Of a stretch of 64,000 nucleotides of DNA, positions 6,250 to 63,233 are shown piece by piece. Where the stretch lies: IMG/VR virus record IMGVR_UViG_3300035682_000025, positions 8,042 through 72,041 of that record; one strand, 5' to 3'. Within the stretch, counting starts at the first letter, position 1, and every line of letters starts with the position of its first letter. The notes under the pieces were generated by a model. That model did not search any database and was not told the DNA's origin. It saw only the letters and a list, made by a program, of their open reading frames with translations. The DNA comes from a virus. The position numbers and the translations under genes were made by a program.

Positions 6250-8130
6250 ATGGTTTTTTCCGTTAGTCCATCCATTACAGTAAGAGAAGTTGACCTTACT
6301 ACTACCGTTCCTGCTATTACAACTCCGCCTGCTGCTATTGCTGGCGTGTTCAATTGGGGGCCAGTCAATGAAAGAGTTTTGATTTCTTCTGAAATTGAGC
6401 TCGCAAATATATTCGGAAAGCCAACAGACGATAATTATGAAACATTTTTCTCGGCTGCTGACTTTCTATCATATTCTAACGCATTGTATGTCACCCGCGT
6501 TGTTTCTGATACCGCAAATACAGCAAGTTCAACTTACTTTGAAGCAAAATATCCAGGTGAGCTTGGTAATTCTTTAGCAGTATCTGTCGTCACTGCTGCC
6601 AATGATGATATAGAAGACCCGATTGCTTTTAGTGCTCCTGCTTGGACCGCAACTAAAGTTGTTGGGACGGTATCGGAGCTTCAGACAAACCCCGCAGACG
6701 AGGTCGCTGGAATGGCGTTTGGAACAACAGTTCTATATGTTACGACCTTAGCAGCAACACTAGATATCAAATCTGATGATGTTATCCACATATCTTCCGA
6801 CATATATGGCGCACAGGAAATTTCTGTATCCAATTTTGACGATAATATCACAAATGCAAACACAACTCCATACATTCATAAGATTACGCTATCTGGAAAA
6901 TATACACTACCAGAAACCGATCCAACTGATTTGACTTTCAGCCGCAGATGGGGATTTTCTAGTGCAGTTGGTGCAGCTCCTTCTGCTGGTCGTATGCATA
7001 TTATAGTGTATGATAACGATGGTAATATTACAGGTACTGCTGGCCAGATCATTGAAAAGTATGAAAATGTTTCGGCCGAACCTACTTCTAAACTAGCAGA
7101 CGGCACGAACAACTACTATAAGGATGTTCTCAGCACAAAATCATCTTATATCGTCGCTTTGGATTCAACCTCAATTGATACTGAAGACCAATTGCGTCAA
7201 GGCGACGTGCTCGCATCTGGCGCGAATGGTGAAAGCGAAAGCGAGATTGTTCTTGGCAAAATTGCGCAGGGATATGACCTATATAAAGAAGCTAACGAGG
7301 TTGATGTTTCATTTGCAATTCAAGGAAGACCATCTCTGAATCTTGCGAATTATCTGATTTCAAATCTGGCTGAATATCGCAAGGATTGTATGGTATTTGT
7401 TTCTCCAACTAAAGCTGATGTTGTTGATGTTGCATCACCACAGACACAGTTGACGAATATTCTTGCTTATCGCGCCGACCTTCAGAATTCTTCCTATTGG
7501 TTCATGGATTCTGGTTACAAGTATCGCTATGACAAGTACAATGATGTATTTCGTTGGGTTCCTCTGAATGGGGATATGGCTGGTCTTGCCTCACTTGTTC
7601 AGCCATGGGAGTCGCCAGCTGGTTATAGAAAGGGTCGCGTTCGTAATGTGATCAAACTCGCATTCAATCCAAATAAGGCTCAGCGCGATCAGCTATATGG
7701 AAAAGATGTCAACCCAGTCATTACACAATCTGGCCAGGGAACAATTCTTTTTGGTGACAAGACTGGATTTGGCACCGCAACCGGAAGCGCGTTTACTCGC
7801 ATCAATGTCCGTCGCTTGTTCATCACGGTGGAAAAGGCAATTGCTACAATATCTGCTCAACTATTGTTTGAATTCAATGACGAATTCACGCAAAATCAGT
7901 TTCGTCAGATTGTTGACCCATTCCTTCGTGACATTCAGGGTCGCCGTGGTATTATTGACTTCCGTGTTGTTTCGGATGCAACCGTGAACACCCCACAGAT
8001 AATCGATATGAACACTTTCCGTGCAAACATCTTTATCAAACCTTCACGTTCCATAAATTACATCGAATTGACTTTTGTGGCAACCAGAACTGGCGTTGAA
8101 TTTGAAGAGATTGTCGGCCAACAGTTCTGA
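6250..8130 (+). CDS. gp18: Tail sheath protein (T4 gp18 homolog)
   Basis: Strong conservation with T4 gp18, e.g. YRYDKYNDVFRWVPLNGDMAGL, SPAGYRKGRVRNVIKLA, AQRDQLYGKDVNPV, TRINVRRLF, INYIELTFVATRTGVEFEE. Confidence 0.9.
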   Translation: MVFSVSPSITVREVDLTTTVPAITTPPAAIAGVFNWGPVNERVLISSEIELANIFGKPTDDNYETFFSAADFLSYSNALYVTRVVSDTANTASSTYFEAKYPGELGNSLAVSVVTAANDDIEDPIAFSAPAWTATKVVGTVSELQTNPADEVAGMAFGTTVLYVTTLAATLDIKSDDVIHISSDIYGAQEISVSNFDDNITNANTTPYIHKITLSGKYTLPETDPTDLTFSRRWGFSSAVGAAPSAGRMHIIVYDNDGNITGTAGQIIEKYENVSAEPTSKLADGTNNYYKDVLSTKSSYIVALDSTSIDTEDQLRQGDVLASGANGESESEIVLGKIAQGYDLYKEANEVDVSFAIQGRPSLNLANYLISNLAEYRKDCMVFVSPTKADVVDVASPQTQLTNILAYRADLQNSSYWFMDSGYKYRYDKYNDVFRWVPLNGDMAGLASLVQPWESPAGYRKGRVRNVIKLAFNPNKAQRDQLYGKDVNPVITQSGQGTILFGDKTGFGTATGSAFTRINVRRLFITVEKAIATISAQLLFEFNDEFTQNQFRQIVDPFLRDIQGRRGIIDFRVVSDATVNTPQIIDMNTFRANIFIKPSRSINYIELTFVATRTGVEFEEIVGQQF

Positions 8131-13966: not shown

Positions 13967-15286
13967 ATGAGTCAAAACAATCGTTTCCTAGTAGAAAAGT
14001 GGAAGCCAGTTCTGGACCACGAAAAATTCGGCCGTATCGGTGATGATTATCGCCGTGGCGTTACTGCAACAATTCTAGAGAACACACAGAACGCTCTGCG
14101 CGAAGACCGCACCGCAGTTTCTATGACGTCTCTCTTGAGCGAAACAACAAACAACACCTACGGCGCTGGCGCTGGTGCTGCTGGATTTAGTTCTGGTGCA
14201 GAGGCTAGCGGTCCAACCGCTGGTTATGACCCAATCCTAATCAGCTTGGTTCGTCGTTCCATGCCTAACCTGATTGCTTACGATATCGCTGGTGTTCAGC
14301 CGATGACTGGTCCAACCGGACTTATCTTCGCGATGCGCTCCAAGTATACTGCAATGGCTGGTAACACTTCAACAGAAGCTTTCTACGGCGAAGCAAACAC
14401 CGCGTTCTCTGGAACCGGAACACCAAACTCCGCTGGTCTTCCAACCAACGCAAACTTCGGTACTGCTATGAGAACTGAAGTAGGCGAAACTCTTGGTACT
14501 GGCGGCAACCCATTCGGCGAAATGGCTTTCTCAATCGAAAAAGTCGCTGTCGAAGCAAAGACCCGCGCATTGAAAGCAGAATACACCACTGAACTTGCAC
14601 AAGACCTCAAGGCAGTTCATGGTCTGGACGCTGAGACAGAACTTGCAAACATCCTTTCTTCTGAAATCCTTGTTGAAATCAACAGAGAAGTTGTTCGTAC
14701 AATCTATAGTTCTGCTGTTCAGGGTTCTCAGGGAACCGCTGTAAACGGTACATTCGATCTTGACGTTGACGCAAATGGCCGTTGGTCAGTTGAGAAGTTC
14801 AAGGGTCTGATGTTCCAGATTGAGAAAGAAGCTAACGCAATTGCTAAGGCAACTCGTCGCGGCAAGGGTAACATCGTTATCTGTTCTTCTGATGTTGCTT
14901 CTGCACTTCAGATGGCTGGTATCCTTGATTACACTCCTGCTCTAAACTCTAACAATCTACAGGTAGATGATACCGGCAATACTTTCGCTGGTGTTCTGAA
15001 CGGCCGCTTCCGCGTATACATCGACCCATACGCTGGTTCAAACTACCTGGTTGTTGGTTACAAGGGCTCATCCGCGTTTGACGCTGGTATTTTCTACTGC
15101 CCATACGTTCCACTACAGATGGTTCGTGCTATCGGCGAAGATACCTTCCAGCCAAAAATTGGCTTCAAGACCCGCTACGGCATGGTCGCGAACCCATTCG
15201 CTGGTGGCGCTACTCAAGGTATGGGTGCTATCTCTGCTGCATCAAACGTGTACTACAGAAAAGTTATTGTATCAAATCTGTTCTGA
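13967..15286 (+). CDS. gp23: Major capsid protein (T4 gp23 homolog)
   Basis: AYDIAGVQPMTGPTGLIFAM and other blocks characteristic of the T4 gp23 family. 439 aa. Confidence 0.9.
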   Translation: MSQNNRFLVEKWKPVLDHEKFGRIGDDYRRGVTATILENTQNALREDRTAVSMTSLLSETTNNTYGAGAGAAGFSSGAEASGPTAGYDPILISLVRRSMPNLIAYDIAGVQPMTGPTGLIFAMRSKYTAMAGNTSTEAFYGEANTAFSGTGTPNSAGLPTNANFGTAMRTEVGETLGTGGNPFGEMAFSIEKVAVEAKTRALKAEYTTELAQDLKAVHGLDAETELANILSSEILVEINREVVRTIYSSAVQGSQGTAVNGTFDLDVDANGRWSVEKFKGLMFQIEKEANAIAKATRRGKGNIVICSSDVASALQMAGILDYTPALNSNNLQVDDTGNTFAGVLNGRFRVYIDPYAGSNYLVVGYKGSSAFDAGIFYCPYVPLQMVRAIGEDTFQPKIGFKTRYGMVANPFAGGATQGMGAISAASNVYYRKVIVSNLF

Positions 15287-15321
15287 TAAAAGAACTCGGA
15301 AACAACCGAGTCAAACTAAAG

Positions 15322-15349
15322 GGGCGGAACTTCGGTTCCGCCTTTTTTT
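15322..15349 (+). terminator. Rho-independent terminator after the major capsid gene
   Basis: GGCGGAAC-TTCG-GTTCCGCC stem-loop followed by T7 run. Confidence 0.8.
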
Positions 15350-15404: not shown

Positions 15405-15480
15405 ATAAATAGAAGTATAGGTCGCGGAGGTCGAGTCCCACCTATTCTAGAACTATCATTTTTTGGAAGGAGTCCCAGCA
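15405..15480 (+). promoter_or_regulatory. HEG-associated late promoter plus conserved leader (copy A)
   Basis: ATAAATAGAAGT...TCGCGG...CTCTAGAACT...AAGGAG, conserved with copies upstream of the HNH (29687-29765) and second GIY-YIG (62183-62267) genes. Confidence 0.6.
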
Positions 15481-16302
15481 ATGTCTATTTATACTGGTTT
15501 TGTTTACATTTGGTTTGATCGCAAAAAGAAGTGGTTTTGTATTGGTTCTCACATGGGTAGTTTGGATGATGGTTATACCTCATCAACTGGTTTCATGAAA
15601 AAGGCATACAAAAAGCGACCAAATGACTTTAGACGAAAAATACTTGAGTTTTACTATGGAAACGACAGCAGAGAACTATTCTCTATTGAACAAAAGTATC
15701 TTGACATGATAAAGGATGCAGAACTTTGTCTTGGTGAAAATAAGACAAATGGAACCATAAGATATTACAATGTAAAGAAGAAAGCATTAGGAATTTCTGG
15801 TATAGCCGCTTCTGTTATAAAGAAAAGCTATTGGAATAGTGAAATTGGTAGAAAAAAGAAGATGGAAATGAGTGAAAACATGAAGAAAAATAATCCATCA
15901 AAAAAGGGCGCGGTTCCTTGGAATAAAGGAAAGCGTTGTCCGTCAATTTCAATTGCAAAACTTGGAAAATCTATGAACTATACAGAAGAACAACGAAATC
16001 GTAGATCGGAAAGGTCCAAAGAGTTATGGGCCGATCCAGAATATCTAGAAAAAATGCGCAACCGCAAAAGCCCAGACTATGAAAAAATAGCAGACAAAAT
16101 GCGCGGCCGAAATCACGACGAAGATACTAAGGCTCGCATATCAGAATCTTTGCTGGGAAAACAAAAGACAGAAGAACACAAACTGGCAATGAAAGTATCT
16201 GCTAAAACAAGAAACCCATTTACATGCCCGCATTGTGGATTTCAAGGAAGGGGTGGTCATCGCTATCACTTCAATAACTGCAAATCTTTTCCCAAAGAAT
16301 AA
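15481..16302 (+). CDS. GIY-YIG homing endonuclease (Seg-like) with NUMOD-type DNA-binding repeats and C-terminal Zn finger
   Basis: N-terminal GFVYIWFDR...KWFCIGS GIY-YIG motif. Repeated NPSKKGAVPWNKGK / HDEDTKARISES NUMOD3-like motifs. CPHCG...HRYHFNNC at C-terminus. True start is ATG 15481 with RBS GGAAGGAG (the track start is a TTG). Confidence 0.8.
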   Translation: MSIYTGFVYIWFDRKKKWFCIGSHMGSLDDGYTSSTGFMKKAYKKRPNDFRRKILEFYYGNDSRELFSIEQKYLDMIKDAELCLGENKTNGTIRYYNVKKKALGISGIAASVIKKSYWNSEIGRKKKMEMSENMKKNNPSKKGAVPWNKGKRCPSISIAKLGKSMNYTEEQRNRRSERSKELWADPEYLEKMRNRKSPDYEKIADKMRGRNHDEDTKARISESLLGKQKTEEHKLAMKVSAKTRNPFTCPHCGFQGRGGHRYHFNNCKSFPKE

Positions 16303-29081: not shown

Positions 29082-29669
29082 TCAATTTCCGGTTATCAAC
29101 TCATATATTTCTTTCCAGTTTGTCACACGTCTCACATCTTCATGATGATCATCAATATTATAATGATGAGACATCAAAATGGGCTTCATACCATGACCCA
29201 AACCCATCAAGGCATTTTTCATCAAATCTTCAATCCAAAAGCACCCAGTTCCTTCATATTCTTTCAGTAGTTCTTTTTTGTTCGATGAACTGCCACATAG
29301 GGTCAAGCGCTCAAATGCTGTCTTACCAAAGAGGTTGTGAATGTTTTCCATTCTGGCATCATACATATCGCGTGTATTTGGAATTGCGCTGATGCAATGG
29401 AACACATAGCCATGATCTTCGTGAAGTTTGCGGATGTATTTGATGGCGTCTTTGAATGGAGGCAAACTCCGCATGGCAGCACTTTCATTGAAAGCAGCTG
29501 CCAGCTCATCGCCTTCTTCTTTCGAGATGCCATATTTGTCTTCGATGCTGTAGAATCCGTTTATGGTTTCTTTGTACCCCTTGGACACCATTGACATGTG
29601 GAAACCGTGTTCCCAATACCCAATAACCCCATCGAAATCTGTGACAATCACATTGTCATAAGCAATCAT
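29082..29669 (-). CDS. HAD-superfamily phosphatase, 5-prime(3-prime)-deoxyribonucleotidase-like
   Basis: N-terminal motif I VIVTDFDGVI (DxDGV), 195 aa. Confidence 0.55.
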   Translation of the reverse strand: MIAYDNVIVTDFDGVIGYWEHGFHMSMVSKGYKETINGFYSIEDKYGISKEEGDELAAAFNESAAMRSLPPFKDAIKYIRKLHEDHGYVFHCISAIPNTRDMYDARMENIHNLFGKTAFERLTLCGSSSNKKELLKEYEGTGCFWIEDLMKNALMGLGHGMKPILMSHHYNIDDHHEDVRRVTNWKEIYELITGN

Positions 29670-29686: not shown

Positions 29687-29765
29687 ATAAATAGAAGTGT
29701 CAATCGCGGTAGTGCAAATACCCACTGACTCTAGAACTTGTCACCTAAAAGAAGGAGCTCCAGCA
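29687..29765 (+). promoter_or_regulatory. HEG-associated late promoter plus conserved leader (copy B)
   Basis: GATAAATAGAAGTGTCAATCGCGG...CTCTAGAACT...AAGGAGCTCCAGCAATG. Conserved with copies A and C. Confidence 0.6.
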
Positions 29766-30710
29766 ATGGATATTTATCCGATTCTAGCATCAAAGCCTCA
29801 TAGCGAACATCATCTCAATAGATATATCAGGTTTATTGAGCAATGTCAACAGAATAACAAAAAGTCTTCCATAAAAACACATAGGCATCATATTTGCCCA
29901 AGAGCAAAAGATATGTTTCCAGAATATGAGTCGTTCGCCAAGAACAAATGGAATATGGCACGACTGACGCCACGACAGCATTTCATCGCCCACATAATGT
30001 TGTGGAAAGTATATCCAAACATTTCTTCGCAGTTCAATGCTGTTTGGCAAATGAAACACAGAAATAACGAACAAATGAATTCGCGACTATATGAAAGCGT
30101 TCTATTAGAGCATAGCAGAGTAACCTCAGCTAGACTAAAAAATACGGTTTCTGTATATGATGCAAATGGTTTATTTCATCGTATTCCAGTAAGTGAATAT
30201 GACGAAAGTAAGCATACACCCATTTCTGCAAATAGAGTAGTAGCAAAAATGGATAGCGGTGATTATGTTGTGGTTTCTGTAGATGAGTTTCGTTCTAGAA
30301 CTGATTTACACGGAACAACAAAAAATACGAAAGCATGGAATGATGGAAATACTGTTATGTATTCTTACAAAAATCCTGGCCCTGGTTTTACGAGGGGTCA
30401 TTTACCCCTCTCGGATGAGCAGAAGAAAATTCGTAATGAAAAGACTCGACAGACTATATCAAAAAGAACATCAGAAGAAAATAAACTAATCAGTATAAAG
30501 AGCTCTCAAGCTAAAAGAGAGTATTATGCCAATCTCTCACCAGAAGAAAGAAAAAAGCCGCAAGAGTTCAAAGACAAGTTGTCGGAAATCAGGAAAGAAA
30601 GCAATCCGGGTTTCAGAGCAACTCACGCCTGCCCTACTTGCGGCAAAGAAGGTCAGAAAGCTAATATTTCAAAGCATCACGGTCTCAATGGCGAAAAGTG
30701 TAGATGGTAG
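29766..30710 (+). CDS. HNH homing endonuclease (free-standing, Mob-like)
   Basis: HHICPRA ... NMARLTPRQHFIAHIMLW HNH motif. Lys/Glu-rich C-terminal DNA-binding tail with CPTCG. Antisense to the surrounding operon. ATG 29766 with RBS AAGGAG. Confidence 0.8.
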   Translation: MDIYPILASKPHSEHHLNRYIRFIEQCQQNNKKSSIKTHRHHICPRAKDMFPEYESFAKNKWNMARLTPRQHFIAHIMLWKVYPNISSQFNAVWQMKHRNNEQMNSRLYESVLLEHSRVTSARLKNTVSVYDANGLFHRIPVSEYDESKHTPISANRVVAKMDSGDYVVVSVDEFRSRTDLHGTTKNTKAWNDGNTVMYSYKNPGPGFTRGHLPLSDEQKKIRNEKTRQTISKRTSEENKLISIKSSQAKREYYANLSPEERKKPQEFKDKLSEIRKESNPGFRATHACPTCGKEGQKANISKHHGLNGEKCRW

Positions 30711-30739: not shown

Positions 30740-31210
30740 TTACAATCCCGTAATCTTGAAGATTTCCCGCAGTGTGTCAGCGGTGTTCTTGTGAACAATT
30801 GCGATGCCGCCGAGCTCTTTCCATGCCTTGCAGTTTTTTTCGAAGTCATCAATCAGAATGTCGCCAGGTTCGTGCATGAACAATGCTTTGTTCACTCCGC
30901 CCATCATCGGAATGACAGTAATGTCTTTGGATAGATGTTCCCGCACCCAAGCCCGTTTTTGAATAGCAGCATTTTTGTAGTTCGACTTTGGGCAAGCAGA
31001 CAGAATGGTAACATCAAAATTGTCAACCAATATGTTGAACATCCCCTTTGCATCTTTCATAAGCGGAAGGTTAGCGTAGAAGTCGTGGTAGCCGTTGATC
31101 ATCTTCCACATCACATCGTCGTCAAGCGTTTGTGGGTCAACGCCGAATTTTTCAACAAAGTGGGTGTCGAAGTCCGCCATCACGCCATCGAGGTCTAGGT
31201 AGATACGCAT
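30740..31210 (-). CDS. 5-prime(3-prime)-deoxyribonucleotidase (NT5C family, HAD superfamily)
   Basis: N-terminal IYLDLDGVMADFD is the NT5C signature, 156 aa. Confidence 0.65.
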   Translation of the reverse strand: MRIYLDLDGVMADFDTHFVEKFGVDPQTLDDDVMWKMINGYHDFYANLPLMKDAKGMFNILVDNFDVTILSACPKSNYKNAAIQKRAWVREHLSKDITVIPMMGGVNKALFMHEPGDILIDDFEKNCKAWKELGGIAIVHKNTADTLREIFKITGL

Positions 31211-61966: not shown

Positions 61967-62182
61967 ACTTCGATTCTCCTAGCAATTGATATATCTTACC
62001 ATACATCACCCAGAAAATTTCGTCAATGATTCTTTTGTGTATATTTCCTTAGCCAACTCTTCTACGGGTCTGTTTTGAGCATAGCCCCGCTCAATCAGAT
62101 ACTCGGCTTTGTCTTTGTAGACTTTCTGCTGTTCATAGGTAAGTTTTTGCCAATCTTTTCTCATGCTGAGTTTCCTCTATTC

Positions 62183-62267
62183 ATAAATAGTAGTGTCAAT
62201 CGCGGGAGACCTGGCAGAATCCCCATTGACTCTATGTTTGACAACCTAATGAAAGGAAACACAGCTC
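62183..62267 (+). promoter_or_regulatory. HEG-associated late promoter plus conserved leader (copy C)
   Basis: CATAAATAGTAGTGTCAATCGCGGGAGACC...CCCATTGACTCTATG...AAAGGAAACACAGCTCATG. Confidence 0.55.
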
Positions 62268-63233
62268 ATGGCTATTTATCAACCGTATTTCTACATCATC
62301 CAAGATAAGCGCAACGGCATCTACTATGCCGGCGTCAAATGGGGGAAAGATGCAAACCCATCTACTTTTATGGCAGAAGGTGGCTACACGACTTCATCAA
62401 ATACAATCAACGACCTCATTAGACAGTATGACTTGAGCACCTTTATCATCCGCAAGATCAGAACTTTTGAAACTGCTGAAGAAGCTCAAGATTACGAAAC
62501 CAGGTTTCTTCAAAAGGTGGATGCCAAGAATCATCCAAGATTCTATAATGGCCACAATAACGATTGGATTCTATCCCCGAAAAAACTAAAACTTCTTATG
62601 ATAGAAAGGTATGGGGTCTCATATGCGTTACAAAATAACGAAACGAGAGAAAAAAGGTTTAATACCATTGAAGAAAGATATGGCGTAAGACATCCAATTC
62701 AGTCTGATATCATCAAGAGTAAAATGACCAATACCATGCGCGAAAGATATGAAGTGAGCTGGGCTTCACAGTGTCAAGAAATCAGAAATAAAATGACCGA
62801 AACTACAAAAGAGAGATATGGCGTAGAGTATCCAGCACAATCTATAGAAATTAGAAACAAAATGAAAAAAACAAACCTAGAAATAAGAGGCGTTGAATAC
62901 CCAACACAATCAGAAGAAGTTATGAATAAACTAAGAGAAACCAATTTTGAAAAATATGGTGTGGGAAATGTATTTCAAGCAGATGAAATAAAAGAAAAAA
63001 TAAGAAACAAAAATCTAGAAACTATGGGAGTCGAAAACCCATTCCAATCAGAAGAAATAAAAAGTAATATACGAGCTATAATGACTGCTAGGCACAATCG
63101 AGTGGAAGTTCAAGAAATAAAAAAATATGTAAAAAAGTTCAAGATAAAACTCCAAAGAAGCTGGAACAAAAAGCCTGATGAGTTTATTCAAAACCTACTT
63201 AGTAACCTAAAAAAAGAATACGGCGAAATATAA
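62268..63233 (+). CDS. GIY-YIG homing endonuclease with tandem ERYGVxYPxQSxEI repeats
   Basis: N-terminal YFYIIQDKRNGIYYAGVKWG GIY-YIG motif. At least seven repeats of about 20 aa ([EK][RK]YGV[EN].P.QS.EI.NK). Confidence 0.7.
   Translation: MAIYQPYFYIIQDKRNGIYYAGVKWGKDANPSTFMAEGGYTTSSNTINDLIRQYDLSTFIIRKIRTFETAEEAQDYETRFLQKVDAKNHPRFYNGHNNDWILSPKKLKLLMIERYGVSYALQNNETREKRFNTIEERYGVRHPIQSDIIKSKMTNTMRERYEVSWASQCQEIRNKMTETTKERYGVEYPAQSIEIRNKMKKTNLEIRGVEYPTQSEEVMNKLRETNFEKYGVGNVFQADEIKEKIRNKNLETMGVENPFQSEEIKSNIRAIMTARHNRVEVQEIKKYVKKFKIKLQRSWNKKPDEFIQNLLSNLKKEYGEI

Follow-up and report, generated by a model that had tools for sequence, protein, structure and literature searches.

What is the role of a conserved block of DNA that recurs in front of three different homing endonuclease genes (HEGs) of one phage? 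The question is raised by a 64,000-nucleotide stretch of the IMG/VR virus record IMGVR_UViG_3300035682_000025 (positions 8,042 to 72,041; the whole of this stretch is termed the window), in which a module of ~ 90 bp, bounded by the likely late-promoter core ATAAATA and by the sequence TATTTAT, lies directly before two GIY-YIG-like genes and one HNH gene. The initial annotation had taken the block for a late promoter followed by a structured leader of the HEG mRNA. The module contains two covarying hairpins, and these are selected on the strand antisense to the HEG. We propose, with moderate confidence, that the module consists of two convergent late promoters, one producing the HEG mRNA and the other a cis-antisense RNA of ~ 70 nt that restrains the HEG. 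Free-standing HEGs are abundant in T4-like phages, where they influence marker exclusion and the flow of genes between phages that co-infect a cell.

Three copies of a module in a T4-like phage

The window derives from a T4-like phage, with gp23 located at 13967–15286 (Pfam Gp23) and being only ~ 77% identical to that of the closest GenBank phages. T4-type late promoters carry a (T)ATAAATA core at about −10, lack a −35 element and precede late (virion) genes; transcription starts ~ 6 nt past the core, occurs late in infection and depends on gp55 and gp33. A gp55-type late sigma factor is annotated in the related cultured phage RHph_I1_18. The ATAAATA sequence occurs 20 times in the window compared with 11.3 occurrences expected, and is found 25–55 nt upstream of seven plus-strand structural (virion) genes, including gp23. 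Given this enrichment and location it was taken as the likely late-promoter core of this phage, in which the upstream T of the T4 late-promoter consensus is not conserved. The same core precedes all three HEGs, in agreement with the initial annotation.

A search of the window with the pattern ATAAATAGNAGTNNNNNTCGCGG gave three matches, all on the plus strand, where 0.21 were expected, and three matches were reached in 0/100 shuffles. A covariance model prepared from copies elsewhere recovered exactly these three sites and no other in the window, with E values from 1e-12 to 1e-13, and the alignment of the three copies showed a mean column identity of 75%. The shared element reported before the three HEGs is therefore present, as are the ribosome-binding site (RBS) contexts GGAGTCCCAGCAATG and GGAGCTCCAGCAATG, correctly described as nearly identical. 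The originally delimited sequence is conserved; the conserved block is longer, and runs on through the ATG to TATTTAT (15486–15492, 29771–29777 and 62273–62279). This 7-mer, situated just after the start codon, is the reverse complement of the promoter core ATAAATA. The open reading frames (ORFs) behind all three copies match homing-endonuclease families. The features of the three copies are as follows, hairpins being numbered along the predicted antisense RNA and MFE denoting minimum free energy.

15405–15492: module copy 1, between the gp23 terminator and a GIY-YIG-like HEG; pattern match, and covariance-model match on the minus strand (70.8 bits, E = 3e-13)
15405–15411, plus strand: sense late-promoter core ATAAATA (putative) of copy 1; same core as before the structural genes
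15417: predicted HEG mRNA start of copy 1, ~ 6 nt past the core at the base of hairpin 2, from T4 late-promoter geometry
15486–15492, minus strand: putative antisense late-promoter core ATAAATA of copy 1, read as TATTTAT in HEG codons 2–4
15447–15478, minus strand: antisense hairpin 1 (P3) of copy 1, in both the MFE and centroid folds; covarying consensus helix with an invariant G.U pair
15417–15445, minus strand: antisense hairpin 2 of copy 1, comprising P1, one G-C pair between two single-G bulges, then P2
15405–15416, minus strand: U-rich tail ACUUCUAUUUAU of copy 1, after hairpin 2 and complementary to the sense promoter; the antisense RNA may end here
15481–16302, plus strand: HEG 1, GIY-YIG-like N terminus MSIYTGFVYIW...; phrog_314/655, homing endonuclease
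29687–29777: module copy 2, before an HNH HEG; pattern match, and covariance-model match (73.3 bits, E = 9e-14)
29687–29693, plus strand: putative sense late-promoter core of copy 2
29771–29777, minus strand: putative antisense late-promoter core of copy 2
29731–29763, minus strand: antisense hairpin 1 of copy 2, with anti-Shine–Dalgarno loop
29699–29729, minus strand: antisense hairpin 2 of copy 2, with a G.U pair that reads as A.C on the sense strand (GUCAAU/ACUGAC)
29766–30710, plus strand: HEG 2, HNH type; phrog_655 (2.9e-24) and phrog_12434 (HNH)
62183–62279: module copy 3, before the second GIY-YIG-like HEG; pattern match, and covariance-model match (67.5 bits, E = 2e-12)
62183–62189, plus strand: putative sense late-promoter core of copy 3
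62273–62279, minus strand: putative antisense late-promoter core of copy 3
62232–62264, minus strand: antisense hairpin 1 of copy 3, with anti-Shine–Dalgarno loop
62195–62230, minus strand: antisense hairpin 2 of copy 3
62268–63233, plus strand: HEG 3, GIY-YIG-like N terminus with DUF7487 repeats; phrog_12131/3339 and DUF7487

Anatomy of the module and covariation of its hairpins

Read on the HEG strand, the first half of the module comprises ATAAATA, two variable bases, AGT, helix P1 (6 bp), CGC, helix P2 and its loop, P2', a single C and P1'. The second half continues with CTCTAA, a short helix (P3) with the Shine–Dalgarno (SD) sequence AAGGAG in its loop, (A)TCAGC, a 5-nt spacer within which the ATG falls, and TATTTAT.

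Analysis of 58 distinct copies using RNAalifold returned two hairpins with 18 pairs in total, 11 of them displaying compensatory changes. In this alignment 95.7% of cells were paired and 161 were compensatory, while none of 500 shuffles was as good and slid controls gave only 33–51% paired cells. In a second alignment, of 69 distinct copies, 98.6% of cells were paired with 176 compensatory cells, these values being biased towards the structure since the copies were aligned to the covariance model. The two covarying hairpins are a real structure. An operator DNA for a dimeric protein was considered as an explanation for the repeat and rejected, as the arms covary rather than keep their sequence. 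A tRNA-like element or known RNA family was likewise rejected: ARAGORN found no tRNA or tmRNA, and Rfam produced no match for the whole window at gathering thresholds and none at E ≤ 10 for a consensus-type copy.

The conserved folds are selected on the antisense strand

The direction of the non-Watson–Crick pairs shows which of the two strands maintains the hairpins. The 35 distinct variants of P1 are all complementary, 21 of them fully Watson–Crick, and when read on the sense strand they contain 196 Watson–Crick pairs, 14 A.C mismatches and no G.U pair. Across all 18 pairs, the antisense strand shows 111 G.U against 8 A.C cells, the sense strand showing the reverse, and the 69-copy set gave a similar antisense-strand result (133 G.U against 9 A.C). 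A single position in hairpin 1 holds a G.U pair on the antisense strand in nearly every copy (57/58 and 69/69 in the two sets, respectively). Its counterpart on the sense strand is a constant A.C mismatch, so that the helix is shorter there and the SD sequence stays open. When folded, the antisense RNAs of all three window copies give the same pair of hairpins, with energies of −15.8, −19.6 and −21.8 kcal/mol; the sense leaders reach −12.5, −8.0 and −14.2 kcal/mol and were no better than shuffles (z values of −0.63, 0.02 and −0.35, and of +0.36, +0.99 and −0.19 in a second run).

The strand asymmetry indicates a selected fold in a single-stranded molecule of antisense polarity. Neither a double-stranded DNA signal nor a cruciform would yield a G.U/A.C asymmetry between strands, and mutational bias would neither hold an invariant wobble pair nor avoid other mismatches. 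The conserved folds are selected on the strand antisense to the HEG. The initial annotation had proposed a structured 5' untranslated region (UTR) in the HEG mRNA, to be checked by covariation and folding; the covariation is indeed strong, but the fold that it supports is not that of the sense leader, and this part of the proposal was not borne out. More generally, before a conserved hairpin upstream of a gene is named a leader, it should be asked on which strand its wobble pairs fall.

A putative late promoter faces the gene from within its first codons

Inspection of HEG codons 2–4 at the level of sequence revealed a putative late-promoter core on the antisense strand. The TATTTAT sequence is perfect in 100/141 copies and has one mismatch in 37/141. 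Its distance from the start codon upstream is 5 nt in 96 copies, 4 nt in 21 and 3 nt in 10, and the 7-mer is thus found in three reading frames, encoding x-I-Y, I-F-I/S or Y-L. The distance from CAG[CT], which forms the base of antisense hairpin 1, to TATTTAT is 5 nt (N5) in 105/137 copies. This fixed N5 spacing, despite the sliding ATG, indicates that TATTTAT is placed relative to the antisense hairpin and not to the reading frame.

On the sense side, 110/141 copies have ATAAATA 5 nt upstream of the initial G of hairpin 2 (P1), again a fixed distance, with a further 11 copies carrying CTAAATA or GTAAATA there. Both cores accept these same position-1 variants, they vary independently of each other, and the flanks of the two 7-mers show no complementarity (position 8 against its partner is A/C in 31 cases and G/C in only 16). 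The independent variation and the non-complementary flanks fit two promoters better than one long-range stem. With a T4-type start ~ 6 nt past the core, each core would launch an RNA that begins with a hairpin. In the GIY motif, the codons ATT TAT, preceded by a codon with a final T, already spell the late core in reverse complement, which suggests that the GIY codons gave rise to the antisense promoter before the block spread to HNH genes.

The remaining parts of the antisense strand are also distinctive. The loop of hairpin 1 begins CCUU..., complementary to the SD sequence; in copy 1, for example, a stem of CUGG.../...CUAG holds CUCCUU, the complement of the HEG Shine–Dalgarno sequence, in its loop. 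Hairpin 2 is followed by ACU(U/A)(U/C)UAUUUAU. Positions 8–9 of the sense promoter, counterpart of UU in the antisense tail, are AA in 42/110 copies compared with 11/102 generic late promoters taken from the same contigs, counts that ignore kinship between copies, and such an enrichment is as expected if a U-rich tail was selected.

A model for antisense control of HEG expression

One interpretation of the observed anatomy, covariation, folding strand, promoter-to-hairpin spacing, distribution and cassette boundary is as follows. The left promoter would start the HEG mRNA, and the right promoter, on the other strand in HEG codons 2–4 and convergent with the first at a distance of ~ 70 bp, would start an antisense RNA of ~ 70 nt (75–83 nt in the three window copies). 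This RNA would comprise a 5' hairpin with an anti-SD loop, a second, bulged hairpin and a U-rich tail, and would be perfectly complementary to the HEG 5' UTR over its full length, as far as the AUG. In the late phase of infection the antisense RNA would pair with the HEG mRNA, the first contact being made between the loop and the exposed SD sequence, and this pairing would either block ribosome binding or lead to cleavage of the duplex. The head-on arrangement of the promoters may add transcriptional interference, and the net effect would be to keep a potentially toxic nuclease at low expression.

It could be that the antisense RNA acts in trans as well, especially as the SD hairpin and its flanks are conserved across copies and phages, so that one copy would dampen all module-bearing HEGs, including those of a co-infecting relative. 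This extension is highly doubtful; if true, the module would act as a common brake on HEGs, or as a kind of immunity, when phages compete through them.

The module is a portable block shared by unrelated HEGs

An exact-pattern scan of IMG/VR returned 58 loci and a hairpin-only pattern at least 120; combined, these represent at least 141 distinct copies on contigs of uncultured phages, to which one copy in the Rhizobium phage RHph_I1_18 is added. There are three copies in the window and up to three or four per contig elsewhere, and the covariance model adds more divergent copies in the same contigs, in which substitutions of the compensatory or wobble kind alter even the CGCGG/CCCA core. At least five unrelated HEG types are represented among the downstream ORFs, namely several GIY-YIG-like and HNH-like families together with families that have no PHROG hits. 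So many distinct copies provide unusually strong comparative support, and the presence of a copy in a cultured phage makes the prediction directly testable.

The copy in RHph_I1_18, a cultured T4-like phage, was the sole match of a consensus query to GenBank phages, initially borderline and then confirmed as a true copy (56.5 bits). It precedes an unannotated GIY-type HEG. The module occupies MN988519 80290–80371, and the gene in question (EVB91_137; L059 2578–3195; MN988519 80367–80984) has a TTG start and is annotated as 'hypothetical protein', and its N terminus, TIYQPYTYLIGW, resembles those of GIY-type HEGs behind other module copies. The covariance-model search of the RHph_I1_18 genome covered its first 50 kb, where no second module copy was found, and the 5-kb stretch that surrounds the known copy (L059).

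Bacterial and archaeal genomes gave 34 pattern matches, of which six are true copies, one is weak (33.9 bits) and the remainder are due to chance. The six true copies (L228, L233, L241, L247, L248 and L254) lie on contigs of 1.6–3.8 kb in freshwater metagenome-assembled genomes (MAGs) of unrelated phyla (Bacteroidota, Verrucomicrobiota, Geobacteraceae and Nitrosomonadales), and look like mis-binned phage DNA. These bacterial and archaeal matches give no support for a cellular origin or for a host assignment.

The boundary of the mobile unit can be seen on the 142-kb contig IMGVR_UViG_3300000203_000003 (L002, L010 and L026), where identity between three paralogous HEG cassettes rises from a background of 30–59% to 80–96% exactly at ATAAATA. 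The three HEGs have the module and ~ 180 nt of N-terminal coding sequence in common and then diverge, a pattern consistent with shuffling of nuclease and DNA-binding domains. Across different HEG families, conservation stops at TATTTAT. The initial suggestion that the HEGs are cassettes bringing their own late-promoter core within a portable block is thus supported, both by the jump in identity and by the occurrence of the block before GIY-YIG-like and several HNH-type HEGs.

Genes around the three copies in the window

Directly after gp23, and 57 nt before module copy 1, lies a strong bidirectional intrinsic terminator (15318–15347; a 13-bp stem with a T-run). The HNH gene behind copy 2 is situated between two paralogues resembling NT5C (5'-nucleotidase), at 29082–29669 and 30740–31210, both on the minus strand; this HEG is thus reversed relative to tandem duplicated genes within a long minus-strand gene array. 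Over its C-terminal two thirds, HEG 3 is built from repeated units of ~ 30 amino acids (ERYGV..P.QS.EI..K) that match DUF7487, presumably tandem DNA-binding modules.

Points against the model and alternative explanations

Several points weigh against a discrete antisense RNA that represses the HEG. We infer, and have not observed, the firing of both ATAAATA cores, the starts and ends of the RNAs, and the repression. The copies share ancestry, and the cell counts of the covariation analysis therefore exceed the number of independent events. In the window copies the spacing between promoter and hairpin is 6–7 nt and not 5 nt. Both RNAs would be late, which makes the logic of repression less obvious than in early/late switches. 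Hairpin 2 with its tail was not called as a terminator by a consensus scan of copy 1, the one copy scanned, and a rough d-score of the d'Aubenton-Carafa type gave a module median of −41 against −8 for the gp23 terminator, a relative measure only, as the implementation is uncalibrated and scores even that clear terminator at −8. The 3' end of the antisense RNA is uncertain, and read-through is likely. The left neighbour lies on the antisense strand in at least 54/128 copies (34 are co-directional and 40 undecided, orientation being judged from ORF length only), and for window copies 2 and 3 a minus-strand gene starts 18–19 nt beyond the module (29669 and 62006–62164; the latter a 52-amino-acid ORF, MRKDWQKLTYEQ...). 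For these two copies the antisense transcript could be the leader of the neighbouring gene rather than a discrete small RNA (sRNA).

The last points lead directly to the alternative that the hairpins work inside longer antisense-strand transcripts, with no discrete sRNA being made. In one version, transcripts of the host operon cross the reversed HEG and the hairpins serve as an attenuator, an insulator or a 3'/5' stability element; in the other, the antisense late promoter embedded in the HEG feeds the neighbouring gene late in infection and the hairpins are its 5' leader. The prevalence of antisense neighbours, the proximity of antisense-strand genes to modules 2 and 3 and the weak terminator quality all favour this explanation, and there is a precedent in T4, where promoters embedded in segG serve gene 32 (PMC2988022). 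Note, however, that the module is identical where the upstream gene is co-directional and no antisense gene follows, as in copy 1 after gp23 and in the 34 co-directional copies, and that the cassette ends at the sense promoter, so that whatever sequence lies beyond depends on the insertion site. In addition, with the fixed N5 spacing the RNA would begin at the base of hairpin 1, and U-rich tails are over-represented, both of which fit a small complete transcription unit. Taken together, we regard longer transcripts as an unlikely explanation.

An element acting in the sense HEG mRNA is quite doubtful. Here, AUAAAUA in a read-through transcript would pair with UAUUUAU past the AUG and close the start region, late transcripts without the 5' arm being translated, as in the T4 I-TevI, segB and Aeh1 mobE scheme, and the internal hairpin would act as a 5' stabiliser or protein-binding site. 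Such a mechanism is established for T4-type HEGs (PMC2988022; PMC2677866). The 7-mers are perfectly complementary in 3/3 window copies, TATTTAT being located at +4 to +11, and the stem they could form is predicted in the MFE structures of copies 1 and 2 and, for copy 3, in the centroid structure; moreover, the fully Watson–Crick P1 variants mean that hairpin 2 forms in sense RNA too. The stem, however, amounts to merely seven A-U pairs over a loop of 65–80 nt, its flanks do not covary, as position 8 shows, and CTAAATA or TATTTAC variants are seldom compensated. Long-range pairing between promoter and start codon was for these reasons rejected as the main function of the module. Also against a sense-strand element are the A.C nature of the non-Watson–Crick pairs on that strand, the failure of sense leaders to fold better than shuffles, and the fact that > 40% of copies have no co-directional upstream gene to act as a source of read-through. 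Pairing between promoter and start codon is compatible with the antisense RNA model, of which it is a possible secondary function.

The idea that the selected structure is a hairpin of antisense-strand single-stranded DNA (ssDNA), active in recombination, replication priming or cassette mobility, or that the repeat is a homology patch for swapping HEG bodies, is barely credible. In its favour, DNA hairpins likewise tolerate G.T better than any other mismatch, so that the asymmetry alone does not separate RNA from ssDNA, the module sits at the exact left end of the cassette, and unrelated HEG bodies share it as shuffling would predict (compare PMC4122927), but an ssDNA hairpin leaves the promoter core at N5 before hairpin 1, the anti-SD loop and the U-rich tail unexplained, the module is not accompanied by any transposase or HUH-type enzyme, and a homology patch would need neither covarying helices nor strand-specific wobble pairs.

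Comparison with known systems

Antisense RNAs acting in cis on the gene of a mobile element or of a toxic nuclease are known from RNA-OUT and RNA-IN of IS10/Tn10 and from SymR and symE. As with RNA-OUT and SymR, the putative antisense promoter of the module is located just inside the 5' end of the target ORF, facing the sense promoter, and a small (~ 70 nt), structured RNA would cover the SD sequence and start codon of a message that encodes a DNA-cleaving protein, with a loop available to start the pairing. The module differs in having no sequence or structural homology to either system, in that both of its promoters are of the phage late type (ATAAATA), in having two predicted hairpins rather than one long stem, and in being portable between unrelated nuclease families.

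Among phage systems, T4 I-TevI, I-TevII, I-TevIII and segB, together with Aeh1 mobE, combine a late promoter with a hairpin that sequesters the RBS (PMC2988022). The module resembles I-TevI, segB and mobE in its late promoter immediately upstream, in RNA structure around the translation start, and in a promoter that is complementary to sequence near the start codon. In the T4 cases, however, the SD sequence is held in a stable sense stem, whereas in the module it lies in the loop or a weak part of P3; no stable sense-strand stem containing the SD or AUG was found, sense P3 having an invariant A.C mismatch. Unlike in those genes, the complementarity between promoter and start in the module is a bare 7-mer without covariation, and the helices are selected on the opposite strand.

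An antisense RNA opposite an HEG in T4-like phages is known once, to judge from the citation of Millard et al. 2010 in PMC2984593: CfrI of cyanophage S-PM2 is an antisense RNA of ~ 225 nt that overlaps an HEG and psbA. As cited there, CfrI lies opposite a free-standing HEG in a T4-like phage, as the predicted RNA would, and is co-expressed with the HEG. In that same account CfrI is longer, spans the HEG-psbA junction at a single locus and is of unknown function, whereas the module forms a family of short repeats at the 5' ends of HEGs.

The promoter early stem-loop elements (PeSLs) of T4-like phages are repeated early promoters (sigma-70 type) with a same-strand stem-loop terminator, and mediate shuffling (PMC4122927; PMC2839356). 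The module is similarly a short, repeated cassette of promoter and stem-loop at the borders of variable genes, and plausibly a point of recombination, but it has late-type cores on both strands, is specific to HEGs and includes the RBS and first codons. A search near copy 1 for a sigma-70 early promoter gave one 9/12 match against 0.6 expected, which is chance level.

Dassa et al. 2009 described 'fractured genes' in ocean metagenomes with HEG-borne late-promoter hairpins, TATAAATA, in which two conserved motifs pair (PMC2677866). In both cases HEG cassettes of uncultured T4-like phages bring a late-promoter-containing hairpin. The gp41-1 locus differs in carrying the promoter inside the hairpin loop, without the CGCGG/CCCA core (L170 3270–3320). 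At the gp41-1 split-intein loci (L170–L219) a hairpin with TATAAATA in its loop is followed by a GIY-YIG ORF starting MKVKIYLITN, and this hairpin is probably the element drawn by Dassa et al. Identity of the module with that hairpin was rejected: 0/50 gp41-1 loci have the module between the intein halves, and 0/13 gave covariance-model matches. One contig, L158 (13114–13834 and 12133–12232), contains both a gp41-1-like split intein (identity of 45% to the N half and 71% to the C half), with its halves separated by only a ~ 340-nt NUMOD-like HEG remnant, and, elsewhere, a degenerate copy of the module (50 bits) that no HEG follows.

Full-text literature searches found no description of the present module. 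Limits on the expression of potentially toxic HEGs are known only for a few T4 and Aeh1 cases, all of them sense-strand hairpins. If the proposed antisense control is true, the module would represent the first conserved RNA family dedicated to HEG control, and would combine two promoters, an RBS and an sRNA as a compact portable unit in ~ 90 bp.

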